DNA of 24,000 nucleotides from Candidatus Acidiferrales bacterium (GTDB lineage Bacteria; Acidobacteriota; Terriglobia; Acidiferrales; UBA7541), in the NCBI GenBank assembly GCA_049273775.1, contig JBASRK010000048.1, forward strand, positions 1 to 24,000, read 5' to 3'. Below the pieces are notes generated by a model. That model was not told where the DNA came from, did not search any database, and saw only the letters and a list, made by a program, of their open reading frames with translations. This document shows, piece by piece, positions 270 to 23,826 of the stretch (position 1 is the first letter of the stretch; each line of letters begins with the position of its first letter). The position numbers were made by a program, and so were the translations under genes.

Positions 270-417
270 TGCTGTGACATGGACGGCTGGGCGGCCCCCC
301 GCGAAGGCTCGCTATCCTAGGGCAAGTGCAGAGGATAACCGATAGTAGGCTGGTTTCCTGGAAGGGCGTTTCCCCGGCGCGATCCTGATGGGTTGTGCTA
401 CGGGCTGTTATCTCGAG

Positions 418-2259
418 CTATCTGGCAGCGCCGACGCCTGGACTGGCGCGGATCTGCTGCCAGCGACGCGGCCGGCGTTTCCCATCGAGGACCTTTTTGC
501 GAAGGCGAATGAATTTCGGTGTGACCTCAACATATTCGTCATCGGCGATGAACTCGATCGCCGATTCCAGAGTCAGCACCCGGTGCGGCACGAGACGAAT
601 GGCTTCGTCAGCGGTGGAAGCCCGCATGTTGGTCTGCTTTTTTTCTTTGGTCACGTTGACGTCCATATCGGCCTCGCGCGCATTTTCCCCTACAATCATG
701 CCCTCATAGACCTCGGTGCCCGGGCCGACAAACAGCTCACCGCGCTCCTGCAGGTTCCACAGCGCGAAAGCGGTCGTTTCCCCGACACGATCCGCCACCA
801 GCGCGCCGGTGGTGCGCGAAGCGAGCTCGCCCGCATACTCCGTCCAGCCATCAAACAAAGAATGCAGCAGCGCCGTGCCGCGGGTATCGGTCATGAGCTG
901 GCCGCGCAAGCCGATCAAACCGCGCGAGGGGATGCGGAACTCCAGGCGCACGCGTCCGGAGCCGTGATTCACCACTTTCCCGAGCGCGCCGCGGCGGCTG
1001 CCCAGCGTTTCCATCACGATGCCGATAAACGACTCGGGGCAATCCACGATGAGCTGCTCTATCGGCTCGAGCCGGCGGCCGTTTTCGGTACGCACAACGA
1101 TTTCCGGCTTGCCGACCATCAGCTCGTAGCCTTCGCGGCGCATCGTTTCAATCAGGATCGCGAGCTGGAGCTCGCCGCGCCCGAGCACGCGAAATGCGTC
1201 GGTCGTGTCCATGTCTTCCACGCGGATCGAAACGTTGGTCAGCAGCTCCTTTTGCAGACGTTCGCGAATGTCGGGCGACGTCACCCGATTCCCCTCGCGG
1301 CCGGCCAGCGGGGACGTGTTCACCATGAAGATCATTGCCAGCGTGGGCTCATCGATGGTCAACGGCTCGCACGGCGCGGGATGCTCGAGGTCTGTGATGG
1401 TTTCGCCGATTTGAATGCCCTCGACCCCGGCAATCGCCACGATATCGCCGCAGGTCACCTCATCGGCCTCATCGCGCTGCAGTCCGCGGAACGTATACAG
1501 CTTGGTGATGACCGTGGGCACGAACTCGCCGGAAAGCTTGGCAATCCCCACCTGCGCACCGCGACGAAGCGTGCCGTTGAACACGCGACCAATCGCGATG
1601 CGTCCGAGAAAATCGCTGTAGTCGAGGTTGGTTACCTGAATCTGCAAAGCATTCGCAGCATCACCGGACGGCGCAGGAATCGCTGCAACGATCGTCTCAA
1701 ACAGCGGCTGGAGATTCGTCGAAGCGTCGGTCAATGCGCGATGGGCCACGCCGGTTTTTGCATTCGTGTAGAGGACGGGAAAATCGAGTTGATCTTCCGC
1801 GGCGTCGAGATCGATAAAAAGGTCGTAGATTTCGTCGAGAACCGCATTTGTACGAGCATCGGCTCGGTCGATCTTATTGAGCAGCACGATGGGGGGCAAA
1901 CGGGCCTGCAAGGCCTTTTGCAGCACATAGCGCGTCTGCGGAAGCGGGCCTTCGCTGGCGTCAACCAGAAGGAGCACGCCGTCAACCATGCGCAGCGCGC
2001 GTTCAACCTCACCGCCGAAGTCGCTGTGGCCCGGCGTATCAACAATATTGATTTTCGTGCCCTGGTACCACAACGCGGTGTTTTTGGCCAGAATGGTGAT
2101 GCCGCGCTCGCGCTCGAGGTCGTTCGAGTCCATCACCCGCTCGACGACGGCCTGATTCTCGCGGAAAATGCCGCTCTGGCGCAGCATGGCGTCCAGGAGC
2201 GTCGTCTTGCCGTGGTCCACGTGAGCGATGATCGCGATGTTGCGGACGGACTGCGTCAT
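418..2259 (-). CDS. typA: Translational GTPase TypA/BipA
   Basis: 613 aa ORF. The N-terminus is [26 protein letters not shown] (G1 motif), followed by [12 protein letters not shown] (G3) and NKIDR (G4). Length and EF-G-like domain order are typical of BipA. Confidence 0.95.
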
Positions 2260-2406
2260 GCCTTAGTCATTCTCCTTCGTGCGCCGCATTCGCTCGTTCG
2301 GGCTCGGAGCGACTGCGATAGGCGGCGGTGGGCTTCCCCGAGTTCACCAGGAGATCGCCAAAGGGGCCAGCCGCTCCGCCACAGCGCGAGGCCCCCGCAA
2401 ACGAAA

Positions 2407-2434
2407 GGGGCTGCAAGCCCGACCTTGCAGCCCC
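2407..2434 (-). terminator. Strong GC hairpin followed by a U-rich tract on the minus strand (intrinsic-terminator-like)
   Basis: GGGGCTGCAAG (2407-2417) and CTTGCAGCCCC (2424-2434) form an 11 bp perfect stem with a 6 nt loop. On the minus strand it is followed by TTTCGTTTG. It lies about 145 nt upstream of the typA start. Confidence 0.4.
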
Positions 2435-2486
2435 CCTGCAAAAGTCATTCATCGAACTGCTTTACAAAAGCAATAAACGCAATGAC

Positions 2487-2515
2487 ATTCTATCACCTAG
2501 CCCGACGATTGGCTA
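2487..2515 (-). promoter_or_regulatory. Candidate sigma70-type promoter, minus strand (TAGCCA-N17-TAGAAT)
   Basis: On the minus strand the -35 TAGCCA is at 2515-2510 and the -10 TAGAAT at 2492-2487, with a 17 nt spacer. It sits in the only AT-rich patch of the typA upstream region. Confidence 0.3.
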
Positions 2516-2686
2516 CCTCTCACGTAGGGTGCCTCATAATGAGTCACTGCCCTCGCGTAACAGCGCTCCAGACAAATGGGGAATGAAAAGTCGGGATCTC
2601 GTCCCTTGGGTTCGCCTGGAAGATCGCTGACGATAAGGGCGTTTCTCGGGAAGCGGGACCTGCCATCAGGAGCGTCGCACGGTTGC

Positions 2687-3657: not shown

Positions 3658-3862
3658 GGAGTCGGCCTGCGACGCGCGTGCTGGAGCGATGATCGATTGA
3701 ACCAACACTGGACCTTCGGGAGCCCAAGTCGTCCTGCGGTTGCGCATGGCCTGCGCGCCGATCACTCGGCACACAGGAAAGCCTGAAGCAGGCGCAGGGC
3801 ACCCACCTGGAAACGGGGTTCAGGATCTAGCTTCACACGGCGAAGCGGACCACTCCTTTTTT
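3658..3862 (+). ncRNA. Candidate structured small RNA, about 205 nt, with a rod-like closing helix (possibly 6S-like; identity unproven)
   Basis: The region starts at the predicted TSS of the 3624-3651 promoter and ends in T6 at 3857-3862. The 5' 37 nt (3658-3694) can pair with the 33 nt just before the T-run (3824-3856), giving about 27 bp with small bulges. The core holds several local hairpins, including a C(UUCG)G tetraloop at 3714-3719. No credible ORF is present. Confidence 0.4.
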
Positions 3863-6230: not shown

Positions 6231-7547
6231 ATGAATGCCTGGGACAAAATCCTCCAGCACATGGAACGCCGGGTGAACCCGCACAGCTTCGCCACCTGGT
6301 TCCGCCCCACCCGGCAGGAAGGCGCCGAGAACGGCAAGCTGGTGATCCGCGTGCCGACGCGCCTGTTCCGCAAGCGGCTGACGGAAACATACGGTGAGCT
6401 GCTGCAGGCGGTCCTGTTTGAAGTGGGCATGCCGGATACGCGCCTGGAGTTCTTCTGCTCGGAGCCCGAGGCCGCCGCGGGCGCCGGGGCGCTCGCGGCC
6501 AAGCAGGCCCGGCTCGATTTTGATTCGGTGGACCACCAGCTCAGCCCGCGCTATATCTTCGACACGTTTGTCGTGGGGGCATCGAACCAGTTCGCCCATG
6601 CCGCCTCGCTGGCCGTGGCCGAGCAGCCCTCGAAGGCCTACAACCCGCTGTTCCTCTACGGCGGGGTGGGCATGGGCAAGACCCACCTGATGCAGGCCGT
6701 CGGCCACCGGATCAAGAAGCGCAACCCCTCGACGCGGCTCACCTATATCAGCGCCGAAAAGTTCACCAACGAGGTGATCAACTCGTTGCGCTTTGACCGC
6801 ATGTCCAGCTTCCGCGACCGCTTCCGCACTGTGGATGTGCTGCTGGTGGACGATATCCAGTTCATCGCCGGCAAGGAGCGCACTCAGGAGGAGTTCTTCC
6901 ACACGTTCAACGCGCTCTACGAGCAGCAGAAGCAGATCGTGGTCTCCTCCGATTGCCCGCCGAAGGAGATCTCCGCCATTGAGGAGCGGCTGCGCTCGCG
7001 CTTCGAGTGGGGCCTGATCGCCGATATCCAGCCGCCCGACCTGGAGACCAAGATCGCCATCCTGCAGAAGAAGGCCGAAAGCGAGCGCGTGCACTTGCCC
7101 GACGAGGTGGCCGAATTCATCGCCCGCTCGATCAAATCGAATGTCCGCGAGCTCGAGGGCGCGCTGACTCGCCTGCTGGCTTACGGTTCGCTGACCGGCG
7201 CCGACATCAACCTGCCCACCGCCCAGCAGGTGCTCAAGAACATCATCGCCACGCAGGAGAAGAAGGTCACCATCGAGCTCATTCAGAAGCGCGTGGGCGA
7301 GCAGTTCGGCCTGCGCGAGCAGGACCTGAAGATGCGCAGCAATTCGAAAGCCATCGCCTTTCCCCGCCAGATCGCCATGTACCTGGTCAAGCAGCTCACC
7401 TCGGCATCGCTGCCGGAGATCGGCCGGCAGTTCGGCGGCAAGCACCATACGACGGTCCTGCACTCGATCCACAAGATCGATACCCTGCGGCGCAGTGACA
7501 AGGACCTGAACCGCACCCTCAATAAGCTGCTCGACTCGTTTGTGTAA
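6231..7547 (+). CDS. dnaA: Chromosomal replication initiator protein DnaA
   Basis: 438 aa ORF. It has Walker A GGVGMGKTHL, Walker B LLVDDIQF, sensor and box VII motifs (VVSSDCPP, RLRSRFEWGL), and the C-terminal DNA-binding signature GGKHHTTVLHSIHKI. Confidence 0.97.
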   Translation: MNAWDKILQHMERRVNPHSFATWFRPTRQEGAENGKLVIRVPTRLFRKRLTETYGELLQAVLFEVGMPDTRLEFFCSEPEAAAGAGALAAKQARLDFDSVDHQLSPRYIFDTFVVGASNQFAHAASLAVAEQPSKAYNPLFLYGGVGMGKTHLMQAVGHRIKKRNPSTRLTYISAEKFTNEVINSLRFDRMSSFRDRFRTVDVLLVDDIQFIAGKERTQEEFFHTFNALYEQQKQIVVSSDCPPKEISAIEERLRSRFEWGLIADIQPPDLETKIAILQKKAESERVHLPDEVAEFIARSIKSNVRELEGALTRLLAYGSLTGADINLPTAQQVLKNIIATQEKKVTIELIQKRVGEQFGLREQDLKMRSNSKAIAFPRQIAMYLVKQLTSASLPEIGRQFGGKHHTTVLHSIHKIDTLRRSDKDLNRTLNKLLDSFV

Positions 7548-7834
7548 TCGCGTGCAACGCCGCCACTGGCCCTCCATGCACCCGAGGAAATCCCTGTGGA
7601 GAGCCTGTGCCCTTCCTGTACAATCGGTGGATGGTTTGCGCCCGGCGGCGCTGTTTTCCGCGATTTCCGCAGGGCATCCTCTGCCAGGTACACAGGACAA
7701 TGCCTGCGCGTTGCGGCCCTTGAACTGGTTTTCAACGTTTCCACAGACGCTACGGCGACTACGGTCTTTATACCTTCTAGGAAAGAGAGTAAAGTAACCG
7801 GTTCGTAGCCGAAGAAAAGCGAGGACACCCCGCG

Positions 7835-8947
7835 ATGGAATTCAGCGTAAAGAAATTTGATCTGCTCGAGGAACTGAGCCTGACGCAGGGCGTGGTGGAG
7901 CGCAAGACCACCATCCCCATCCTGTCGAACTTGCTCTGCGAGGCCAAGGGCAGCCGGCTGACGATTACGGCCACCGACCTCGAGCTGAGCATCCGCACAT
8001 CTTGCGAAGCCAAGGTCAAGAAAGACGGCGCCGCCACGATCCCGGCTAAAAAACTGCTCGAGCTGGTGCGGCTGCTGCCGGACGAGGAGATCCGCTTCAA
8101 GCTGCTCGAAAACCACTGGGTCCACATCGTCTGCGACCGCAAGGCTTACAAGATGGTGGGCATGGCGAAGGATAACTTCCCTGCCATCCCGGTGTTTCCC
8201 CACCCCTTGGTGAAGATTCCGGCGAAGCTGCTGAGCTCGCTGATCACTAAGACGGCGTTTGCCATCTCCATGGAGGAGTCGCGCTATACGCTGAATGGCG
8301 GCTTGCTGATCCTGAAACCCGAGACGCTTGCGATGGTAGCCACTGACGGCCACCGCCTGGCCGTGGCCGAAACCGACCACAAGTTCGCAGGGCTCAATAG
8401 CGAAGTGCGCCTGCTCGTGCCCAAGAAGGCCATGGTGGAGGTCCAGCGGCTTGCGGCCGAAGCTGGCGATGACGGCCAGATCGAATTTGCCCGCGACGAT
8501 AATCACCTCTTCTTCCAGGTGGGGCCGCGGCTGCTGATTTCACGCATGCTCACCGGGCAGTTCCCCAACTACGAGGCCGTGCTGCCGCGGGAGAACAACA
8601 AAGCCGTCGTTCTGGAACGCGGCGAGCTGAACGATGCGCTGCGGCGCGTCTCGCAGCTCGCCGACCAGCGCTCGCACGCGGTAAAGTTCGCGCTCGCCAA
8701 GGAGGGCCTCGAGCTTTCCTCCTCCAGCGCCGAATACGGCGAGGCCAAGGAATCAATCGAGAAGGAATACAAGGGCGACCCGCTCTCCATCGGCTTCAAT
8801 TCGCAGTACCTGCTCGATTTTCTCGCCGCGGCGTCCGAGGGCCCCATCAGCATCGAGTTCAAGGACGAGCAGTCGGCCGGGCAGATGCGCCCGCTGGCCG
8901 ACGAGCAGTACCGCTATCGATATGTGATCATGCCGATGCGGATCTGA
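7835..8947 (+). CDS. dnaN: DNA polymerase III beta sliding clamp
   Basis: 370 aa ORF. It contains PILSNLL, ATDLELS, ATDGHRLA and a C-terminal YVIMPMRI. It sits directly downstream of dnaA. Confidence 0.97.
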   Translation: MEFSVKKFDLLEELSLTQGVVERKTTIPILSNLLCEAKGSRLTITATDLELSIRTSCEAKVKKDGAATIPAKKLLELVRLLPDEEIRFKLLENHWVHIVCDRKAYKMVGMAKDNFPAIPVFPHPLVKIPAKLLSSLITKTAFAISMEESRYTLNGGLLILKPETLAMVATDGHRLAVAETDHKFAGLNSEVRLLVPKKAMVEVQRLAAEAGDDGQIEFARDDNHLFFQVGPRLLISRMLTGQFPNYEAVLPRENNKAVVLERGELNDALRRVSQLADQRSHAVKFALAKEGLELSSSSAEYGEAKESIEKEYKGDPLSIGFNSQYLLDFLAAASEGPISIEFKDEQSAGQMRPLADEQYRYRYVIMPMRI

Positions 8948-9040
8948 CGGTCCCGCGACCTTGCCCCGACCCCGTCGAGGGGTCATCCTGCCCATGCGCA
9001 TTTAGCCGCAGCGCCCCGGCCCAAGACCGGCGCTCCCTGG

Positions 9041-9130
9041 AACAAATTCGTGACTGTGTAGGTGCATATAGCTATAAAGCTCTACGCCGATTTTATCTAG
9101 AAGCTATAGTAAGAATTCCATCTTTCAAGT
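9041..9130. other. AT-rich island with dyad symmetry inside the dnaN-gyrB gap (candidate DUE or strong promoter/operator)
   Basis: A hand count gives about 32 G+C in 90 nt, against clearly GC-rich surroundings. It contains:
- the palindrome TATAGCTATA at 9067-9076;
- AGCTATA repeated at 9070-9076 and 9102-9108;
- an imperfect inverted repeat, AGCTCTA at 9078-9084 versus TCTAGAAGCT at 9096-9105;
- a possible promoter GTGACT (9050-9055)-N17-TATAAA (9073-9078). Confidence 0.45.
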
Positions 9131-9547
9131 GCCCCGGCGCGACGGTGCTTTGGCTCGCAGCTAACTCCCCTAACCCATTGAAAAACCCGCTGTTATTTGC
9201 ACACAAAGGCGGCGAAATTGCCTTGAGGAACAGGCGGAAATCCGGTAGGATTTATCCTGTCAGGTGGAGTAGCGGTTTCCTCCAGAACGGCACGTCGGCC
9301 AGGCTCGCAGACGCCCAGAAAGGCTTGCTTGCCCTGATGGAAGAGGGGCTGGCGCCAGCGCCCCGATACCGGGCAGGGCAGGCGAGGAGTTCGAGCCTGG
9401 AAGAAAGCAGTCTTCGCCGCGTCCGCCCGTGGCGGACGGGATGGAGCAGAAACCCTTCGAGTTCCGGACAAAGCCCGGTCCCGAAAGATTCGGGGATGCG
9501 GGACACCGGAGCCACAGGGTAAGGCGAGTGTCGGCCCTTTCCGTTGA

Positions 9548-12016
<2,469 letters not shown>

Positions 12017-12031
12017 CGCGGCGTGAGGCGG

Positions 12032-12283
12032 ATGATCTACCAACTGAGCTGGAAGATCCTGCCTGGGCTGCGGGGACTTTCCTGTTCGGAGTTTCTGGCC
12101 ACTGCCACCGACGCACCGGACAACGAACAGGGCGTGGCGCTGGAGCTGGGCTCCGAGGCGGAGCGCGACGCGCTGCTGCGGCACCTGGAGGAGTATTTCG
12201 GCGCGCAGCGGTACTCGAACAACGCCGCAGCATTTGAGGCGGTGAAGGCCTACGTGCTCGAGTGGGCCGTGGCAAGAAAATGA
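12032..12283 (+). CDS. Small acidic hypothetical protein (83 aa) encoded between gyrB and gyrA
   Basis: ORF 12023..12283, with the first ATG at 12032. Third codon positions are overwhelmingly G/C, as in the neighbouring genes. I recognised no family. It begins 16 nt after the gyrB stop and ends 59 nt before the gyrA start. Confidence 0.5.
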   Translation: MIYQLSWKILPGLRGLSCSEFLATATDAPDNEQGVALELGSEAERDALLRHLEEYFGAQRYSNNAAAFEAVKAYVLEWAVARK

Positions 12284-12289
12284 CACCGC

Positions 12290-12309
12290 GGGCGCAGCAT
12301 GCTGCGCCC
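12290..12309 (+). other. Perfect 20 bp palindrome (hairpin) between the small ORF and gyrA
   Basis: GGGCGCAGCATGCTGCGCCC is self-complementary across all 20 nt. No U-run follows, so it is not a canonical intrinsic terminator. Confidence 0.35.
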
Positions 12310-12342
12310 CTACACCTGACGGCTGAACGCTGAGAGGAGCGG

Positions 12343-14889
12343 ATGGCGGACGAGACAACGCAATCGTTGCTGGTGCCGGTGGATATCGAAGCCGAGATGC
12401 GCAAGTCGTATCTCGACTATGCCATGAGCGTGATCATCGGGCGCGCGCTGCCCGATGTGCGCGACGGCCTCAAGCCCGTGCACCGCCGCATCCTCTACGG
12501 GATGTACGAGCTGGGGCTGACCTCCACCAAGCCTTACCGCAAGTGCGCCAAGATCGTCGGCGAAGTCCTCGGCAAGTTCCACCCGCACGGCGACGTGCCC
12601 GTGTACGACGCCCTGGTGCGCCTGGCGCAGAGCTTCAACATGCGCTACCCGCTGGTGGACGGCCAGGGCAATTTCGGCTCGGTGGATGGCGACCCGCCCG
12701 CGGCCATGCGGTATACCGAAGCGCGCCTGGCGAAAATCGCCGAGGAAGTGCTTGCCGACATCGAAAAGGAAACCGTCGATTTCCTTCCCAATTTCGACGA
12801 GACCACGCAAGAACCGACGGTCCTGCCGACGAAGATTCCGAACCTGCTGGTGAACGGCGCCTCCGGCATCGCCGTCGGCATGGCCACCAACATCCCCCCG
12901 CACAACCTGCGTGAAGTGATCGACGCCACCGTGCTGCTGATCGAAAAGCCCGACACCTCGCTCAAGGAAATGATGAAGCACGTCCCCGGGCCGGACTTCC
13001 CCACCGGCGGTTATATCTCCGGCCGTGAGGGCATCGAGCAGGCCTACAAGACAGGCCGCGGCAGCTTCCAGATGCGCGCCAAGGCGGCCATCGAGCAGGC
13101 AGGCAAGGACCGCGAGAACATCGTCATCACTGAGATCCCCTACCAGGTGAACAAGGCCAGGCTGATCGAGCGCATCGCCGAGCTGGTGCAGACCAAGAAG
13201 CTCGAGGGCATTGCCGATGTCCGCGACGAATCCGACCGCGACGGCATGCGCATCGTCATCGAGGTCAAGCGCGGCGAAGAGCCCAAGCTCATCCTGAACA
13301 ACCTCTTCAAGTTCACGCAGATGCAGGAGTCGTTCGGGATGATCCTGCTGGCGATAGTAGGCGGGCAGCCGCGGGAGTCGGGCCTGCTGGCGCTGCTGCG
13401 CCTGTTCATTGAGCACCGCGTCGAAGTCGTGCGCCGGCGCACGGCCTACGAGCTGCGCAAGGCCGAAGAGCGCGAGCACATTCTGCTCGGCTTCAAGAAG
13501 GCGCTCGAGTACCTCGACGAGGTGATCAAGCTCATCCGCCGCAGCAAGTCGCCTAAGGAGGCCAAAGAAGGCCTGATCGAGCGGTGGAAGTTCACCGACC
13601 GCCAGGCCCAGGCCATCCTCGACCTGCAGCTCCACCGCCTGACCCAGATGGAGCGCGAAAAGATCCTCGAAGAGCTGAAGGAGATCCAGGCGAAGATCGC
13701 CGAGCTGAAGGAGATCCTGGCGAGCGAAAAGAAACTGAGGGGAGTGATCATCGCCGAGCTGCGTGAGGTGCAGAAGGCGTACGGAGACGAACGGCGCACG
13801 CAGATCGTCGAGCGCGTCGAGGAGATCAAGCTCGAGGACCTGATCGCCGACGTGGACATGGCCATCACCGTCAGCCACGCCGGCTACATCAAGCGCACCC
13901 CGGTGGACGTCTACCGCCATCAGTCCCGCGGCGGCAAGGGACGCATCGGGGCGAAGACCCGCGAGGAGGACTTCGTCGAGCACTTGTTCATCGCCTCGGC
14001 GCACAGCTACATCCTGCTGTTCAGCTCGAAGGGCCGCGTCTATTGGCTGAAGGTGTACGAGATCCCGGAGGCCGCCGCGGCCACTCGCGGCAAAGCCATC
14101 GCCAGCCTAGTGAAGTTCCAGGAAGGGGAAAAGCTCACGGCGGTGGTCTCGGCGCGCAACCTGGAAGAAGCGGGGCGGCACGTTTTCCTCGCCACCCGCA
14201 GCGGCACGGTGAAGAAAACCGAGCTCGCCGAGTTCAGCAACCCGCGCCCGTCGGGCATCATCGCCATCAACCTCGACGCCGACGACGAGCTGATTGGCGC
14301 CAAGCTCACCGACGGCAAGCAGATGATCTTCCTCGCCAGCCACGATGGCCAGGCCATCCTGTTCCGCGAAACCGAGGTGCGGGCGATGGGCCGGCAGGCC
14401 GGCGGGGTGATCGGCATGGACTTGGCTAAGGGCGATTACGTGGTGAGCATGGATGCCGTCCAGCCCGACTTCGAGATCATCCGCAAGGAGCACAAGAAGA
14501 CCACCGAGGACCTGGATGAGCTCGATGGTGACGCCATCCGCGATTCGCTCGCCTCGCTGATGCTGACCGTCGCCGAAAAAGGCTATGGCAAGCGCACGCC
14601 GCTCGCCGAATACCGCATCACTTCCCGTGGGGGCAAGGGCGTCATCAACCTGAAGACGACCGAGCGCAATGGCAAGGTGGTGGCCACCCTCCAGGTGACC
14701 GAAGAGTCCGACGTGATGATCATCACCGAGTACGGCAAGATCATCCGCGTCCACGCCAACGAGATCCGCGAGGCCGGTCGCTCCACCCAGGGCGTGCGCC
14801 TGCTGCGGCTGGAAGCGGACGACTCGGTCGCCGCAGCCGCCGCCATCCTCGAAGACGAAAACGGCGAAAAAGAACCCGCGAAGAACTAA
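12343..14889 (+). CDS. gyrA: DNA gyrase subunit A
   Basis: 848 aa ORF. It contains [27 protein letters not shown], the active-site AAMRYTE, the QRDR-equivalent [17 protein letters not shown], and C-terminal beta-pinwheel repeats with an acidic tail. Confidence 0.97.
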
Positions 14890-15013: not shown

Positions 15014-15352
15014 ATGAAACAGGGGACGGGCGTCTCGGCCTCATTGGCGGCGATCGTGAGTTCCGTCGCGACGATCAGCTGTTGCCTTCCGCTCGGATTT
15101 GCCGCTGCTCTGGGAGCCGGCGCCGCGAGCGCTTTTTTCACGACGCTGCGGCCCTGGCTCTTGGGCCTCTCGGTTGTGCTCCTTGGCCTCGGATTCTGGC
15201 AGCAGGATCGCGCGAAACAGTGCGCAGTCCGAGGCAGATTGCTTGGCAATGTTCTGCTGTGGGCCGCAGTTGTTGTGGTCTTGGGGATGATTTTATTTCC
15301 TCAGCAAATTGCTGGATTCATTGCTGATCGGTTCTACGAGACTGGAAAATGA
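15014..15352 (+). CDS. MerT-like small membrane protein with vicinal Cys-Cys in TM1
   Basis: The likely start is ATG 15014, with AAGGGAA 7 nt upstream; the ORF-track TTG at 14921 is less plausible. The 112 aa protein has three predicted TM helices. TM1 reads VATISCCLPLGFAAALG, compared with the MerT ASTCCLGPLVLVALG type. One further Cys (AKQCAV) lies between TM2 and TM3. Its stop overlaps the next ATG (ATGA at 15349-15352). Confidence 0.6.
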   Translation: MKQGTGVSASLAAIVSSVATISCCLPLGFAAALGAGAASAFFTTLRPWLLGLSVVLLGLGFWQQDRAKQCAVRGRLLGNVLLWAAVVVVLGMILFPQQIAGFIADRFYETGK

Positions 15353-15942
15353 AGAAGAGAGCGGCAGTTCTCAGCGTGATAGCGATTCTTCTGCTTCTCG
15401 TCGCGGTTTATCTGTGGGGTCCTTCGTCAGCGCCGACGGGCCAAGAACCTCTCGTTACCCTATCGAATGCAAATTTCGGCGATTTCGAGAATGCCTTTGA
15501 CGCTGACTCCGATGCTCCGCGACTGGTGCTTCTCCTTTCTCCCACGTGACCGGGCTGTCTGCGGGGGGCCTCCGCAGCTCAGCAACTCTTGGCTCGGCAT
15601 GCGGAGCGAAAGGTGCGCGTGTTGGTTGTTTGGGAGCCGATTCTGGCGACCGACTGGCGGTCGCCAAGCGGCAGTACGATGGCACGAATTCCCGACAGGC
15701 GGGTTCGACAGTTCTGGGATCCGAAGCACGTCGTAGCAGGTGCGTTGAATGAAATTGCAAAGCAAAAACCCCCGCAGCCCGGGCCGCGCTGCTGTATGCA
15801 GAAAGGATTCTACTGGGATGAAGCCATTCTTTACGCACCGCACGCCCACTGGAAGGATGAGCCGAATGCAACGTTTTGGAACGGTCCAGTTGCGCGAATT
15901 ATCTCCGGGCTCGAGAAGACCCTCAACGACCAGCATTGGTAG
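15349..15942 (+). CDS. Membrane-anchored thioredoxin-fold protein with in-frame TGA (predicted selenocysteine, U-P-G-C motif); alternatively a nonsense pseudogene
   Basis: ORF-track fragments 15349..15549 and 15589..15942 share one frame and are separated by a single TGA at 15547-15549. Read-through gives ...PRLVLLLSPT-U-PGCLRGASAAQQLLARHAERKVRVLVVWEPIL.... The N-terminus MKKRAAVLSVIAILLLLVAVYLW is a signal anchor. A SECIS-like hairpin follows immediately downstream. Confidence 0.6.
15554..15583 (+). promoter_or_regulatory. SECIS-like stem-loop starting 5 nt after the in-frame TGA
   Basis: The upper stem CTGCGG (15559-15564) pairs with CCGCAG (15572-15577) around a G-rich apical loop GGGGCCT. 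The lower stem GCTG (15554-15557) pairs with CAGC (15580-15583) across a small internal loop. The apical loop lies 16-22 nt after the TGA. Confidence 0.5.
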
Positions 15943-16431: not shown

Positions 16432-17562
16432 TTAGCCCTCCGGCGGGGCGAGGTAGTAGCCGGGCCGCGAACGCACCTTCACGCCGCGGCGTGCCACCTG
16501 AACTTTGATCTCGTGGTAGCCGATCGGGTCGGTGCCGCTCGGCCGGTAGCTGAGCAAATACTGCGCGTGCAGCTCCCCGCCGATCTGGTCAATGGCCTTC
16601 TCAATCGAGCGGTCGCGGAAGGTGGCGAGATGCATCCCGCCGGTGGCGGTCGTGGCGACCTCGAGCGCATGGTCGTGCACCGCGTAGGTGACGTGTTGCA
16701 CGATCCACACCGCCAGCGCCATCAGGTCGATGTTCCCGTAGCGCTGCTGCTCGCTTGTGGGCGTCTGCGGCGTGCCCGGCATGGGCGGAAGCGGAAACGT
16801 CCCCGGCGGGGAGATTTGCGGCGGGCCGGCCTGCTTGGGCGGCGCGCGGAGCTCGGCGGCGGTGGTGGATAGGCCCACGGTGTAGATGGTGATGTTCGAG
16901 AGTTGCGCCTCGCGCAGCACCTGGCCGAGCTTGCTCTCGCTGCCGGTGTCGGCGGCCTCCGACAGAGTGACGATCACCCGCCGGCGAGACGCCGGGCGGC
17001 TGCGCAGCAGGCCCACGGCTTCTGAAAGCGCGTCGTAGAGGCGGGCGCCGGAGGTGCCCATGCGCAGCGTGGCCACCGTTTTCTCGATCTTGTCGGCGTC
17101 GCTTGAAAACGGCAGCAACTGGTCCACGGTGTCGTTATAGCCCAGGACCGCGGCTTCGCCGGTCGGCCCGAGCACGGTCTGGGTGAACACGATGCCGGTC
17201 TTGCGCATCGCGGGCAGCAGGGCTTCGATGCGCGAGCTGGTCTCGAGCACCATCACCACCGAGAGCGGGTCGCCGCCGAGGTCGAAGTGCTCGATGCGCT
17301 GCTCCACGCCGTTGTCGAAGATGCGGAAGTCGCCCTGACCGAGGTCCAGTACAAGCTCGCCGGAGGAGTCAGTCACTGTCACCGGCGCGTTGACCAGATC
17401 CACCTTGACGCGGATCTCCGGCTTTACCTTTGGCTGCTGGGCCGGCACGCCCGGCTTTGGCGGCAGTGGCCCTGGCGGGGCCTGCGCCCGCGCCGATGCC
17501 GCGAGCCAGGCTGCCAGTAGCGCCGCCAGCAACGCGCCGATGGGTTTTTCTCTGCGCTTCAT
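16432..17562 (-). CDS. Secreted VWFA-domain protein of the acidobacterial VWFA-related type (TIGR03436-like)
   Basis: The likely start is ATG 17562, giving MKRREKPIGALLAALLAAWLAASARAQ (a signal peptide); the ORF track extends to 17643. IRVKVDLVNAPVTVTDSSGELVLDLGQGDFRIFDNGVEQRIEHFD is the N-terminal signature of that family, and a VWA-like core follows. Confidence 0.85.
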   Translation of the reverse strand: MKRREKPIGALLAALLAAWLAASARAQAPPGPLPPKPGVPAQQPKVKPEIRVKVDLVNAPVTVTDSSGELVLDLGQGDFRIFDNGVEQRIEHFDLGGDPLSVVMVLETSSRIEALLPAMRKTGIVFTQTVLGPTGEAAVLGYNDTVDQLLPFSSDADKIEKTVATLRMGTSGARLYDALSEAVGLLRSRPASRRRVIVTLSEAADTGSESKLGQVLREAQLSNITIYTVGLSTTAAELRAPPKQAGPPQISPPGTFPLPPMPGTPQTPTSEQQRYGNIDLMALAVWIVQHVTYAVHDHALEVATTATGGMHLATFRDRSIEKAIDQIGGELHAQYLLSYRPSGTDPIGYHEIKVQVARRGVKVRSRPGYYLAPPEG

Positions 17563-17774
17563 CGCTTCTAGTGTACTTGATTCGACGCAGGATTTGCCCC
17601 TGGCGTTGGTTTGCCCTGAAGGAAATCGAAGGGCTCGGCGCATGGGATGTGCTCCTTCAGAATGATGCGCGACGCTTGGTTCGAGTGTTGGCGGGGGAAT
17701 TCATTACGGGAGGCTGCCCGGCGCCTTCTGCGGGTAGAATGGCGCTGCGCACAACGATTGACCGGGGAGATACC

Positions 17775-18626
17775 ATGAGACCTGTTCGCCGCTCTGACGC
17801 GCCCCTTGTGGCCCATCGCAATCCCAAGTTCATGGAGAGCGTCGCAGCGCGTCCCATCCGCATTCTCGGGGAGTACCTCGACCCGCTGGTGCGCCTGCGG
17901 CGGGAAGGCGTGGGCGACACGATCGTGATGTTCGGCTCGGCGCGCATCGGGCCCCGCGACCGCGCTGTGGCGCGCCTGAAGCGCTTGCAAGGCATGCCCA
18001 AGGCCCGCAGGACGCCGGCTCGACGCGCCGCGCTGCGCCACGCGCACACGGCCGTGGAGATGTCGCGCTACTACGAGGAGGCCCGCGAGCTGGCCCATCG
18101 CATCACCACCTGGGCCCTGACATTCGGCGAGAGCCCGCGGCGGTTTGTGATCTGCTCGGGCGGCGGGCCGGGGATCATGGAGGCGGCCAACCGCGGCGCG
18201 GCGGAGGCCGGCGGCAAGTCCGTCGGCCTTTCCATCGAGCTGCCGCACGAGCAGAGGCCCAATCGCTTTATCAGCCCGGAGCTCAGCTTCAATTTCCACT
18301 ACTTCTTTATGCGCAAGCTGTGGTTTGCGCAGCTCGCCAAGGCGCTGATCGTTTTCCCCGGCGGGTTCGGCACGATGGACGAGCTATTTGAGCTTCTCAC
18401 ACTGATGCAGACGGGTAAGCTGCCGGGGCGGAACCTGATCTTGATCTACGGGCGGCGCTACTGGGACAAGGTGCTCGATTGGCGGGCCATGTTGCGCTGG
18501 GGCACGATTAATGACCACGAGTACGGGTTGCTCGAGTTTGCCGACACGGTCGAGGAGGCCTTCCAGCGCGTCCGCGCTGGCCTGGAAAAGCACCACGTGA
18601 GCCTGGACAGTGACCTCGAGGAGTAA
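17775..18626 (+). CDS. LOG / TIGR00730-family Rossmann-fold nucleotide phosphoribohydrolase
   Basis: It has the motifs GGGPGIMEAANRGA and FPGGFGTMDELFE (PGGxGTxxE). ATG 17775 is preferred, with GGGGAGA 4 nt upstream; ATG 17739 is also possible. The ORF-track start at 17430 overlaps the upstream gene's coding region on the other strand and looks spurious. Confidence 0.85.
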   Translation: MRPVRRSDAPLVAHRNPKFMESVAARPIRILGEYLDPLVRLRREGVGDTIVMFGSARIGPRDRAVARLKRLQGMPKARRTPARRAALRHAHTAVEMSRYYEEARELAHRITTWALTFGESPRRFVICSGGGPGIMEAANRGAAEAGGKSVGLSIELPHEQRPNRFISPELSFNFHYFFMRKLWFAQLAKALIVFPGGFGTMDELFELLTLMQTGKLPGRNLILIYGRRYWDKVLDWRAMLRWGTINDHEYGLLEFADTVEEAFQRVRAGLEKHHVSLDSDLEE

Positions 18627-20783: not shown

Positions 20784-23696
20784 TCAGAGGATCGGCTCGC
20801 CGCAATGCCGTGCGATGATGGCGCGCGCTGCATCACGCAGCCGCACCATCTCGTGCCAATCGGAGGGCGCTGCGTCGCGCACCGGCTCAAGAGGCGGAAG
20901 GACCGTCAGCGTGATGCTCGAAGGCCGCGGCAGGTAGGTGCCGTCGCGCAGGAATCGTCGGGTGCCGCGCAGGGCCACCGGGCAAATCGGCCGGCCGGCG
21001 GCCACCGCGGCCTTAAACGCCCCCAACTGGAACGGTCGCACGCCCGGCTGAGACGTAAACGTGCCTTCGGGGAAGACGAACACCGATTCGCCGCGGCGCA
21101 AGAGCTCCTCGAGCTCTTCGGCCTGGTGCAGCCGTGCCTGCGGGTCGCTGCGGTCGAACGCGACGTGGCCGAGCTTGCGCAGGAAGGTGCCGATGAACGG
21201 CATCGAGTGCACTTCGATCTTGGCCACAAAGCGATAGTCAATACCGAGCGCCGCCATCAGGAACAACACGTCGGTGTAAGAGGCATGGTTCGACACGAAG
21301 ACCAGCGAGTTGCCGCGGTCCAGATGCTCGCGGCCCTCGACGTGGATCCTGCAGCCCACCAGCGCCATGTACAGCCGCAGCGCGGGCGAGGTGATGCGAG
21401 CGGCCTGGCGACGCCCGGACGCCAGCACCACCAGCAGCCAAGTGGGCACAATCCATGCGACGAACACAACCGCGGCGTACACGCCATAGGCCAGTTCGAG
21501 GGCGCGACGGACCTGCCGGCGTGCTACCTGCGCGCCACTGATAGCGGCAAGCTTGGCCACCTGTAACCAGGTGGGCGCAGCAGGTGCGGCGAGCTTCCCG
21601 GCGAGGTAGAGTCTTCGGGTCTCCTCGCGGCGCAACTTGCCGCTCGAGGTCTTGGGGATGCTCTGCGGCGGAAGCAGCTCGACCACGTCGGGAGGCAGGC
21701 CCAGCGCCGAAGTCACTTCGTCGGTGATGGCCCGGGCGATGCGCTCGCGGTCTTTTTCCCGCACCTCGGCGACAACCACCAGGCGCTCGGTGCCGGCGGC
21801 ATCGTCAGTGATGCCGAAAGCCACCACGCAGCCCTTGCGCACGCCGGCGACACGTCCGGCAAGCTCTTCGATTTCGTGCGGGTAGAGATTGCGCCCGGCC
21901 TTGATGATGATGTCTTTGACGCGGCCGGTGACGTAGATCTCGCCGTCGGCTTGATAGCCGCGGTCGCCGGAGTCCACCCACCGATCCCCCGCGGCGACTT
22001 GGGGGCCGCCCGGTGGCTCGCCCTCGGGGAAAAGCGCTCGTGTGGCTTCCGAGTTGCGGTAGTAGCCGCGGGTCGCCGAAGGCCCACGGAACCACAGCGC
22101 GCCTTCAACGCGTTCGCCGGCGTCGCAGCCGCTTGAATCCACGATGCGGACCTCGTGCCGCGGCACCGGCCGACCCACGGAGACGAACGCGGCCACGTTT
22201 GGATCGTCTGGTCGCGCTCCGAGCGCCGCGGGAACGGCGCGACCTTCGCGCTCAAAGGTGGCGCGCTCGATGCGGTCCACCCGTGGCTCCCTGCCGAGGG
22301 GCGGCATCGTGACCGCGAGCGACGCCTCGGCGAGACCGTACACCGGCAGCAGTGCCTCCCGGCGGAGGCCGTAGCGCGCAAAGCGCTCCGCAAAACGCTC
22401 GAGTGTCTCCGGGTTGACCGGCTCGGCGCCGTTCAGCGCCAGTCGCCAGGAACTCAGATCCAGTCCCTCGATGTCGCGGTCGGCAATTTTGCGCACGCAC
22501 AGTTCGTAGGCGAAGTTGGGTCCGGCGCCGAGCGTGGCGCGGTGATGGTGCACCGCCCAGAGCCAGCGCTCGGGGCGGTTCAGGAATGCCAGCGGCGAAA
22601 GAACCGCCAGCGGCAGGCCGAAATAAAGCGGGAACATCCAGGCGCCGATCAGGCCCATGTCGTGATAGAGCGGCAGCCAGCTCACCGTCGTGTCGTTCGG
22701 ACGGACCTCGATCGCTTCGCCGATGGCGCGGATGTTGGCCAGCAGGTTTGAGTGCGTCAGGATCACGCCCTTGGGCTCGCCGGTCGAGCCCGAGGTGTAC
22801 TGCAGCAACGCGATCTCCTGTGCGTTCGCCCGCGGCAGGGGCGCGGCGGGCTCTGCCGGAGTGACCTCGGTGAGGCGTGAGGCGTTGACCACGCCGGCCA
22901 GTGACGGAATACGTGGGGTCAACAGCCGGGCGACCCGCTCCGCCTGGCGAAAGGTGACCAGCAGCCGCGCCTCAGCGTTTCGCAGGATGGCTGACTGCCG
23001 TTCGGCGTACTCTGCGATGCGGTCGGCGCGAAACGGCGGATAGATGGGCACCGGAATGGCGCCGGCCAGCAGTACCCCGGCGAAGGTGAAGAAAAACTCT
23101 TGCGAGGTCGGCAGCATAATGGCGACGGTGTCGCCTGGGGCCACGCCGTGGCGCCCGAGTCCCCGTGCGCAAGCCTCGGCGCGCTCGTAGAGCTCGCCAA
23201 AAGTGATCGCGGAGGTGCGGCCTTCCCCCTCGCGCAAGTAGAGGTGCGGGCGGCTGGCGTCTGCGCGGGCGCGGTGGCGCAGGACGTCTTGCAAGGTCTC
23301 AGCAGATTCAATGCTCCGCGTGTCCAGGCGCACTGAAGAATGCGTCGCGCCGATGGGGCGAGGCGCGGAGAACGGCTCCAGCGGCGCGACACCGGCGTCG
23401 CGGGCGTGGAGCAGCAGCGCGTCCACCAGGTCGTCCATCGTGTCGGCTTCCGCCACCACGCGGTCGGGCAGGCGGGAGCCGAACGCAGCCCCGAGCCGCA
23501 GCATCAGTTCGACGCGCTCGAGGCTGCCTAACCCGAGGTCGCGGTCGAGATGCGCCGCACCGCGAACGGCCTGTAGCGACCGGTGGCTGCCCAGCTCAGC
23601 GAGCAGTTGGCGAACGATCTCCGCCACCTGTTCTTGGACGGCGGCTCGGTCGAGTTGTCGGCTGGCAGTAGCCACGCGTTCCTGTGTCCCAAACAT
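20784..23696 (-). CDS. Tri-domain fusion: N-terminal acyl-carrier (PP-binding) domain, fatty-acyl-AMP ligase (FAAL-type adenylation) domain, TM segment, and C-terminal lysophospholipid/glycerol-phosphate acyltransferase (PlsC/LPLAT) domain
   Basis: - Carrier motif: DLGLGSLERVELMLRL.
- Adenylation motifs: LLQYTSGSTGEPKGVILTHSNLLANI, YGLAEA, GDRGY, and PKTSSGKLRR.
- Hydrophobic stretch: VYAAVVFVAWIVPTWLLVVLA.
- Acyltransferase motifs: SNHASYTDV (HX4D), FVFPEGTF, and PICPVAL.
- Start is ATG 23696 or GTG 23726. Confidence 0.9.
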   Translation of the reverse strand: MFGTQERVATASRQLDRAAVQEQVAEIVRQLLAELGSHRSLQAVRGAAHLDRDLGLGSLERVELMLRLGAAFGSRLPDRVVAEADTMDDLVDALLLHARDAGVAPLEPFSAPRPIGATHSSVRLDTRSIESAETLQDVLRHRARADASRPHLYLREGEGRTSAITFGELYERAEACARGLGRHGVAPGDTVAIMLPTSQEFFFTFAGVLLAGAIPVPIYPPFRADRIAEYAERQSAILRNAEARLLVTFRQAERVARLLTPRIPSLAGVVNASRLTEVTPAEPAAPLPRANAQEIALLQYTSGSTGEPKGVILTHSNLLANIRAIGEAIEVRPNDTTVSWLPLYHDMGLIGAWMFPLYFGLPLAVLSPLAFLNRPERWLWAVHHHRATLGAGPNFAYELCVRKIADRDIEGLDLSSWRLALNGAEPVNPETLERFAERFARYGLRREALLPVYGLAEASLAVTMPPLGREPRVDRIERATFEREGRAVPAALGARPDDPNVAAFVSVGRPVPRHEVRIVDSSGCDAGERVEGALWFRGPSATRGYYRNSEATRALFPEGEPPGGPQVAAGDRWVDSGDRGYQADGEIYVTGRVKDIIIKAGRNLYPHEIEELAGRVAGVRKGCVVAFGITDDAAGTERLVVVAEVREKDRERIARAITDEVTSALGLPPDVVELLPPQSIPKTSSGKLRREETRRLYLAGKLAAPAAPTWLQVAKLAAISGAQVARRQVRRALELAYGVYAAVVFVAWIVPTWLLVVLASGRRQAARITSPALRLYMALVGCRIHVEGREHLDRGNSLVFVSNHASYTDVLFLMAALGIDYRFVAKIEVHSMPFIGTFLRKLGHVAFDRSDPQARLHQAEELEELLRRGESVFVFPEGTFTSQPGVRPFQLGAFKAAVAAGRPICPVALRGTRRFLRDGTYLPRPSSITLTVLPPLEPVRDAAPSDWHEMVRLRDAARAIIARHCGEPIL

Positions 23697-23826
23697 TCGA
23701 GCGGGACGATTGCAGGGCCCGCGCACTGCGTGGGCCGCTCGGGTAGGGGTGTTTCGGGGCTCAGGCTAACACGCCGCCCCGACAAGGTTCAACCGTGTCG
23801 CCAGGGCATGGTTTGAAGAGTAACCA

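Follow-up and report, generated by a model that had tools for sequence, protein, structure and literature searches.

A TGA codon that interrupts a reading frame in an acidobacterial genome very probably encodes selenocysteine (Sec). The codon lies in a 24,000-nucleotide stretch of DNA from a Candidatus Acidiferrales bacterium (GenBank assembly GCA_049273775.1, contig JBASRK010000048.1, positions 1 to 24,000 of the forward strand; hereafter, the window), and we are highly confident that positions 15349-15942 are one gene, encoding a 197-residue selenoprotein with a signal anchor and, after it, a thioredoxin-fold domain that has U67-P-G-C70 as its active site. The protein represents a new family within a well-known kind, the thioredoxin-fold UxxC selenoproteins.

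One gene across a conserved in-frame TGA codon

The ATG at 15349 opens a frame whose sole in-frame stop is TGA 15547-15549, after which the frame stays open until TAG 15940-15942. The initial annotation of the window had proposed that two open reading frame (ORF) entries, 15349..15549 and 15589..15942, are parts of one selenoprotein gene split by this codon; the sequence confirms that they share one frame, with starts separated by 240 nucleotides (nt). The read-through product of 197 amino acids (aa) is MKKRAAVLSVIAILLLLVAVYLWGPSS…APRLVLLLSPT-[TGA]-PGCLRGASAAQQLLARHAERKVRVLVVWEPIL…, and the region around the site reads …LLLSPT-U-PGC-LRGAS…. The proposal that neither fragment is sensible alone also held, in that the C-terminal part by itself lacks both the signal anchor and the active site.

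A protein search with the read-through protein, with Cys put at the stop, identified 331 relatives. With few exceptions, the best 120 are 108-130 aa long and span the post-stop part alone. These fragments come from Acidiferrales/Acidoferrum metagenome-assembled genomes (MAGs), are labelled ‘hypothetical protein’ and begin at differing points (MRGAS…, MTCLRGAS…, VRVLVVWEP…). Short entries with inconsistent starts are the signature of a gene family that is systematically truncated by gene callers, as had been predicted from the window sequence. Two full-length matches, P0001 (73% identical) and P0103 (43% identical), read LLLSPT-C-PTC-LRGAS, and most of 36 distant full-length homologues likewise carry Cys at the TGA position, within CxxC, in agreement with the expected alignment of Cys with the TGA. 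A profile search of 1.84 billion representatives yielded 1,568 related clusters. Post-TGA fragments are common among these, as are full-length proteins with CxxC, which makes the Sec form a single branch within a broad family of Cys type.

Conservation of the codon was assessed at DNA level. A scan of one genome per species identified 216 genomes with a relative, from which 80 loci were kept and inspected, giving 81 sequences with the window. The 80 loci are nearly all from Acidobacteriota MAGs (Acidoferrales, Terriglobia and Thermoanaerobaculia). The aligned codon is TGA in 81 of 81 sequences, in 80 distinct 300-nt contexts, and 77 of the 81 have no further stop within the 66 upstream codons. 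Genuine stops of the same loci vary: the upstream partner gene, described below, ends in TGA in 68, TAG in 7 and TAA in 5 cases (n = 80), and the selenoprotein gene itself in TGA in 56, TAG in 16 and TAA in 9 (n = 81). TGA accounts for 77% of the genuine stops of both genes, which would give a probability of ~7e-10 (0.77^81) for the internal codon, a naive value that ignores shared ancestry. Because the genuine stops are exchangeable, TGA serves as a normal stop in these genomes, and fixation is confined to the internal codon. Recoding of TGA (genetic codes 4 or 25) was rejected, as the upstream gene and most orthologous genes end in TGA.

The ratio of non-synonymous to synonymous change (pN/pS, Nei-Gojobori) is 0.40 across the 40 codons that precede the TGA and 0.41 in the C-terminal part, showing that both halves are translated and under like constraint. 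No conserved start codon was found 3' of the TGA in these sequences; the position of the first start-capable codon varies between +2 and +50, and ATG reaches at most 11% in any column. These data bear on whether the locus is a pseudogene, a sequencing error, or two genes encoding an N-terminal membrane peptide and a separately initiated C-terminal protein. Gene callers do annotate just the C-terminal fragments, as such a reading would have it, but their annotated starts are inconsistent, the same TGA recurs in 81 independent assemblies, none of which reads TGC or TGT, and relatives with this TGA show no decay of the downstream half. We regard the reading as extremely improbable, and the conserved TGA, equal pN/pS and missing downstream start together exclude it for practical purposes. 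These comparisons show a single gene in which selection keeps the UGA as UGA.

A covarying hairpin follows the UGA codon

A hairpin with an 8-bp stem and a 3-nt apical loop (Table 1) begins 9 nt past the UGA, with a UGA-to-loop spacing of 17 nt (alignment columns 4-20). The codons at +4 to +9 (L-R-G-A/S-S-A) are near-frozen at synonymous sites (CGG in 75/76, GGG in 76/76, TCC in 75/76 and GCA in 71/76 sequences), with a third-position entropy of 0-0.3 bits where neighbouring codons have 1.7-1.9 bits. In the rest of these genes, usage of the fixed codons is only 0.235, 0.238, 0.195 and 0.200, respectively, so the freezing goes beyond codon bias and protein constraint. RNAalifold on the 81 sequences recovers exactly the 8-bp stem, which is retained in all 81. 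Compensatory double changes occur at four of the eight pairs (C-G to U-A in 10 sequences, U-A to G-C in 1, and G-C to A-U in 2 and in 1; 9, 1, 2 and 1 among 79 distinct rows), and 83.6% of cells are paired in the observed register compared with 36-60% in slid registers. The apical loop consists of an invariant G, then G (65) or U (16), then C.

The published model of the bacterial Sec insertion sequence (bSECIS) specifies a loop of 3-9 nt on an upper stem of 4-16 bp, G[G|U]N in the loop, a spacing of 16-37 nt and, for the minimum free energy (MFE), a value of at most -7.5 kcal/mol (PMC13188914). The hairpin agrees with the model on all four counts: its loop and stem sizes and its spacing lie within these ranges, the loop has the G-then-G/U pattern, and the MFE of the core in the window is -11.5 kcal/mol. 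A bSECIS was thus found where the initial annotation had suggested looking for one. Across the 81 TGA genes, the conserved fold ranges from -11.5 to -7.4 kcal/mol (median -11.5), the weakest falling 0.1 kcal/mol short of the cut-off. A lower stem that stacks below the core in the window (15554-15557/15580-15583) was rejected as part of the element; its pairs are broken in most relatives, and the 8-bp core alone is retained.

The hairpin also tracks the codon type. When the DNA of seven Cys-type genes was compared with that of the 81 TGA genes, the hairpin was not formable in five of the seven (-0.2 to +8.2 kcal/mol). In P0001, a close Cys relative, it is weakened (-7.2 kcal/mol) and carries two synonymous changes, one of which (CGG to CGC) is at a position that is invariant in the 81 TGA genes. 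The core was not found elsewhere on either strand of the 0.93 Mb of fetched sequence, nor was a second selenoprotein with the same hairpin there. Judged by its covariation and its association with the codon, the hairpin is a conserved bSECIS-type element linked to the UGA.

Probable selenocysteine insertion and its alternatives

We propose that SelB carrying Sec-tRNA(Sec) would be recruited by the 8-bp G-G/U-C hairpin at 15559-15577 and would insert Sec at residue 67. Three observations weigh against this. A search confined to the 24-kb window detected no selA, selB, selC or selD and no tRNA; the window sequence folded alone is not significantly more stable than shuffled controls (z = -0.28 over 64 nt and -1.37 over 44 nt), so that the case for the hairpin is a comparative one; and Cys-type P0103 (locus L083) retains an intact hairpin, which could therefore have another role, although it fits a recent TGA-to-TGT change in that gene. 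The first and last of these would favour a UGA that is passed without Sec, either by near-cognate read-through with Trp or Cys or by regulated termination that yields a 66-residue membrane peptide, the hairpin being a pause or regulatory element. That reading is very improbable in our estimation. It leaves aside that the site pairs with Cys in homologues, inside a CxxC redox motif, that the loop sequence and spacing fit the bSECIS model, and that purifying selection acts equally on the two halves, so that the downstream one is translated in frame.

It also leaves aside a tRNA-Sec gene that lies close to one orthologue. On L066, a 769-kb Candidatus Acidiferrales contig, a tRNA-Sec is encoded at 7693-7787(-), 1.1 kb downstream of the orthologue (ARAGORN anticodon TCA; Rfam RF01852, 66.3 bits compared with a gathering score of 47). 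Its neighbours are a TPR protein and a DUF6519/beta-helix protein rather than selA or selB. Sec use by Acidobacteria has been described previously, with four selenoproteins in three families (PMC1794560), and Occallatibacter riparius is an acidobacterium that uses Sec (PMC12013277). Taking Sec insertion and its alternatives together, our confidence that this is a genuine selenoprotein gene is high.

One apparent SelB lead in the window was discarded. Probes for Escherichia coli SelB, SelA and SelD matched window positions 1786-2238(-) by tblastn, within a 613-aa ORF at 418-2259(-) that encodes TypA/BipA (TIGR01394, 906.7 bits compared with a cut-off of 757; SelB model, 66.6 compared with 242). 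A 732-aa ORF on the opposite strand (388-2586(+)) overlaps this gene and has no domain match; it is a spurious antisense frame. Long spurious antisense frames are typical of high-GC DNA.

A thioredoxin-fold family outside current models

The read-through protein had been predicted to have a thioredoxin fold, with X-P-G-C at the start of a helix between two strands. An AlphaFold2 (AF2) model of P0001, built from a 23-sequence alignment, supports both predictions (mean predicted local distance difference test (pLDDT) score 80.8, predicted template modelling score 0.75). The model has an anchor helix at residues 6-22, a strand at 58-63, U/CxxC at the start of helix 68-83 and a strand at 90-95, and pLDDT falls below 50 at residues 145-150, the loop that holds C148-C149. 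Foldseek against the PDB matched it first to proteins of the TlpA/ResA/DsbE/DsbF class (2b5x, 1lu4 (DsbE), 3ios (DsbF) and ResA), then to peroxiredoxins, glutathione peroxidases and Sco1, with probabilities of 0.99-1.0, modest target-normalised template modelling (TM) scores of 0.5-0.57 and 11-17% identity. The predicted fold is thus a TlpA/ResA-like thioredoxin fold. By the positive-inside rule, the signal anchor would put this domain outside the cytoplasm.

Sequence models do not recognise the family. Pfam gave no match for the read-through protein (E ≤ 1) or for 36 diverse members (E ≤ 0.01), including to AhpC-TSA, Redoxin and Thioredoxin_8; NCBIfam release 20.0 gave 0 families at E ≤ 1 for the read-through protein; and a PDB profile search gave marginal matches around CPxC (E about 0.4). 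A recent inventory lists 119 prokaryotic selenoprotein families, each linked with a model from Pfam, NCBIfam or CDD (PMC13188914, Table 1, 2026). The protein matches none of the Pfam or NCBIfam models of these families (CDD-only models, for example cd02966, lay outside the comparison), and no description of the family was found in the searchable literature.

The family has a signature of its own, SPT-U-PxC-LRG[AS]SA, VWEP, RQFWDP and CC. The residue before beta-3, the expected cis-Pro site, is P115 in the window and, by our reading of the alignment, S, G or A in relatives; P97 or P125 are other candidates. His127 is invariant. C148-C149 does not vary within the Sec subfamily or among the Cys relatives closest to it, and is missing from more distant relatives.

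A MerT-like partner and a MerR-type regulator

Two features of the gene context go beyond the initial annotation: a MerT-like membrane protein and a MerR-type regulator. Conserved gene order shows that the selenoprotein and the MerT-like protein form a fixed, translationally coupled two-gene module. The partner's TGA stop overlaps the ATG of the selenoprotein (ATGA), with an ATGA or GTGA overlap in 63 of 80 loci, and the partner is directly upstream on the same strand in 80 of 81. P0123 is a natural fusion of a MerT-like protein with the selenoprotein domain. Judged from hydrophobic stretches, the partner has three helices with CC in the first, as in MerT. The CC pair is invariant (80/80) and the loop Cys nearly so (79/80); the second loop Cys pair typical of MerT is not present in the partner, which has a single conserved Cys. 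NCBIfam searches match it to MerTP (E = 4e-5) and, over profile positions 5-91 of 97, to merT_RC607 (E = 6e-4).

In 61 of 81 loci (blastp and tblastn), the gene before the pair, on its strand, encodes a MerR-family regulator in which three Cys are invariant. The usual order of regulator, MerT-like protein and exported xxC protein parallels merR-merT-merP and MerTP fusions. Other genes of metal type are found near some relatives. Cys-type P0122 adjoins a YHS/HMBD P-type ATPase, a CopZ-like protein, a MerR and a MerT-like ORF, and a CusA/CzcA transporter lies within ~5 kb in ~5 loci. Next to Cys-type P0103 are ArsC, a MerR and a gene that joins a DF-family (seleno)protein to a MerT-like domain.

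Two neighbouring genes are worth recording. The fused gene upstream of P0103, at L083 1499-2143(+), combines the DF-family (seleno)protein domain NF049942 (114.7 bits compared with a cut-off of 70) with the MerT-like domain and is preceded by the ArsC-type arsenate reductase and the MerR. Directly downstream of the selenoprotein gene in ~5 loci is a gene for a 122-aa Cys-rich membrane protein (MTRQLEPCCSSPAAICYW…; for example, L080 6608-6979(+)) with no NCBIfam match.

Possible metal handling or redox chemistry outside the cytoplasm

The N-terminal anchor would hold the thioredoxin-fold domain outside the cytoplasm, where U67 and C70 may form a selenenylsulfide or a metal site. In a metal-handling scheme, U67/C70, aided by the flexible C148-C149, would capture a thiophilic metal outside the cytoplasm and pass it to the CC pair of the MerT-like partner. 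We favour metal capture and hand-off to this CC pair as the function, at a little under an even chance; Hg(II) would be the leading candidate, with Cu(I), Ag, Cd or a metalloid possible. The proposal draws on the operon logic, the natural fusion, regulation by a MerR-type protein and the additional, flexible CC pair. Because MerR and then the MerT-like protein precede it in most relatives, the selenoprotein holds the merP slot of a mer operon and, if it does handle metal, would be a functional analogue of MerP on a different fold.

Several observations count against metal handling. The fold is of the oxidoreductase type and not the MerP type. Similarity of the partner to MerT is weak (20-23 bits compared with cut-offs of 130-180). 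The window has no MerR gene, and gyrA stands upstream instead. In the relatives, the regulator scores about equally on ZntR, CadR/PbrR, CueR and MerR models (95-100 bits, all below cut-off), which marks it as a heavy-metal type and assigns no single metal. No merA was seen in any locus.

Alternatively, the same selenoprotein could be an extracytoplasmic selenol/thiol-disulfide oxidoreductase of the TlpA/ResA/DsbE type, serving envelope disulfide reduction or isomerisation or the detoxification of oxidants, with the partner as a dock or a conduit of reducing power. Among known UxxC selenoproteins, the majority are redox enzymes (PMC13188914). Structure searches match the protein best to reductases of the TlpA/ResA/DsbE/DsbF type, to peroxiredoxins and to glutathione peroxidases, and a CPxC-type motif stands at the helix N-terminus, yet no family member matches the redoxin, thioredoxin or AhpC Pfam models, and the presumed cis-Pro position before beta-3 does not appear to be a conserved Pro. 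A redox enzyme would also sit oddly in a context of metal type, given the MerT-like partner, the MerR-type regulator and the P-type ATPase and CopZ that accompany relatives, and MerT-like proteins are not known to act as electron conduits. We treat the oxidoreductase as the main alternative, somewhat less likely than metal hand-off.

A more specific form of the metal-handling scheme is that, in soil Acidobacteria, an exported, membrane-tethered selenoprotein supplies the periplasmic receptor for an uptake or relay module that is MerT-like and under MerR control, with a selenol replacing the thiol of MerP. We put this forward tentatively and consider it rather unlikely. If true, the selenol would bind Hg(II) or another soft metal far tighter than thiol-based MerP; metal sensing, sequestration or detoxification would depend on selenium and proceed without an adjacent MerA; and the biogeochemistry of selenium and mercury would be coupled in soils.

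Relation to known systems

The protein resembles catalogued thioredoxin-fold UxxC selenoproteins in placing Sec at the N-terminal Cys of CxxC at a strand-to-helix junction, in having a bSECIS inside the coding sequence and Cys homologues, and in being represented by truncated database entries. Unlike them, it lies outside the models compared above and has its own signature, a membrane anchor and an obligate MerT-like partner gene. As in merR-merT-merP operons and MerTP fusions (NF033556), a three-Cys regulator, a three-helix CC membrane protein and an exported xxC protein occur together, and P0123 provides a fusion. MerP itself differs, with a ferredoxin-like HMA fold and GMTCxxC compared with a thioredoxin fold, UxxC and a CC pair here; no HMA Pfam match was found in the read-through protein, so the likeness to MerP is one of operon position and an exported xxC pair only. 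The partner in turn departs from MerT in its one loop Cys in place of a pair, in scores far below the MerT cut-offs and in the lack of merA among the loci.

Metal-trafficking selenoproteins (Haft; Zhang) are a further point of comparison. MerT-family proteins (CU motif), MerT/CopZ fusion-like proteins (NF045683), the SO_0444 efflux transporter, SaoT and other SAO proteins, and MbdU all have Sec- or Cys-rich motifs beside or within heavy-metal transport modules, and CC/CU recurs among them. Here, in contrast, the MerT-like protein is never the selenoprotein (CC in 80/80); Sec is carried by its thioredoxin-fold neighbour, and the lineage concerned is that of soil Acidobacteriota, not anaerobic Firmicutes or Desulfobacterota. 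The copper chaperone Sco1/SenC is likewise a membrane-anchored extracytoplasmic thioredoxin fold and was a distant Foldseek match (2k6v). Its Cys pair binds metal, instead of or besides redox chemistry, and by likeness to it the invariant H127 is a possible extra metal ligand. Unlike the protein described here, Sco has CxxxC plus His and its own Pfam family, and no sequence similarity between the two was detected.

The family is widespread among soil Acidobacteria and mis-annotated wherever it was seen, so that current annotation overlooks a conserved protein, exported and of redox or metal type, in a phylum dominant in soil. It would add a family to the prokaryotic selenoproteome, outside the Pfam and NCBIfam models behind the 119 catalogued families, and would extend known Sec use to Acidoferrales-type Acidobacteriota, in which at least 216 species-level genomes encode a relative (80 inspected). 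Its pairing with a MerT-like protein and a three-Cys MerR-type regulator raises the hypothesis that selenium is used in the extracytoplasmic handling of thiophilic metals. The uniform, covarying 19-nt hairpin provides a clean natural bSECIS that could be used for predictor training or recoding work.

Variant family members and surroundings in the window

Some family members depart from the U/CxxC pattern. In the distant full-length relatives P0133, P0191, P0242 and P0165 (alignment A4), the U/C position is taken by W, G, S or R. These residues have common codons (TGG, GGA, TCA and CGA/AGA) that differ from TGA by one substitution; read at protein level, the replacements hint at Sec loss by routes other than Sec-to-Cys. 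P0021 (148 aa) appears to have lost ~21 residues in frame, and with them the whole SPT-U-PxC-LRGAS… active-site segment and the hairpin, whereas its N-terminal anchor and VWEP core remain; either an assembly artefact or a naturally occurring form without an active site would account for this.

Three database proteins, P0006, P0049 and P0007, read through the TGA in the +1 frame and return to frame 0 just past a G-run (for example, …LDRLVCGGPPAAQQLL…), which corresponds to the G6 run at 15562-15567 in the window. As read from the proteins, not the underlying DNA, this suggests single-base homopolymer indels in some assemblies, and P0007 looks like a MerR::C-terminal chimera from the same G-run indel cause. 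The TGA gene and hairpin were also found on L012, L030, L041, L060 and L072, which record titles bin as Elarobacter (Eremiobacterota), Dormiibacterota, Limnocylindria (Chloroflexota), Udaeobacter and Verrucomicrobiia. These are either mis-binned Acidobacteriota contigs or cases of horizontal transfer of the module.

Table 1 Coordinates of the predicted selenoprotein gene, its elements and neighbouring genes in the window
Feature	Position	Strand	Basis
Gene for MerT-like membrane protein, 112 aa; three predicted helices, CC in the first, one loop Cys	15014-15352	+	Translation, NCBIfam, neighbourhood
Predicted selenoprotein gene; 197 codons including the Sec codon; stop TAG 15940-15942	15349-15942	+	Homologues; pN/pS on both sides of the TGA; no conserved downstream start
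Predicted N-terminal signal anchor; MKKR then ~20 hydrophobic residues	15349-15420	+	Sequence; helix 6-22 in the AF2 model of homologue P0001
UGA predicted to be read as Sec, residue 67	15547-15549	+	TGA in 81/81; aligns with Cys in homologues; genuine stops vary
Predicted U-P-G-C active-site motif at strand-to-helix junction	15547-15558	+	Cys at +3 invariant, 76/76
Conserved bSECIS core; 8-bp stem 15559-15566/15570-15577, 3-nt apical loop G-G/U-C 15567-15569	15559-15577	+	RNAalifold, pair counts, entropy
Extended hairpin, window-specific; lower stem 15554-15557/15580-15583 stacked below the core	15554-15583	+	Single-sequence fold, -19 kcal/mol
Vicinal Cys148-Cys149 (TGC TGT), in a loop of low model confidence	15790-15795	+	Invariant in the Sec subfamily and closest Cys relatives
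dnaA	6231-7547	+	
dnaN	7835-8947	+	
gyrB	9596-12016	+	
gyrA	12343-14889	+	

Directly upstream of the two-gene module, the window carries a cluster of replication-origin type (6231-14889(+); Table 1), in the slot that a MerR-type regulator occupies in most relatives. A full-length 6S/SsrS RNA gene is encoded at 3661-3855(+) (Rfam RF00013, 59.3 bits compared with a gathering score of 46.4). Downstream of the module, 16432-17643(-) encodes an Acidobacteria-specific VWA protein (TIGR03436, 160.7 bits), supporting the acidobacterial origin of the window. The remaining assigned ORFs encode a LOG/lysine-decarboxylase-like protein (17430-18626(+)) and a 980-aa protein with AMP-binding, PP-binding and acyltransferase domains (20784-23726(-)).

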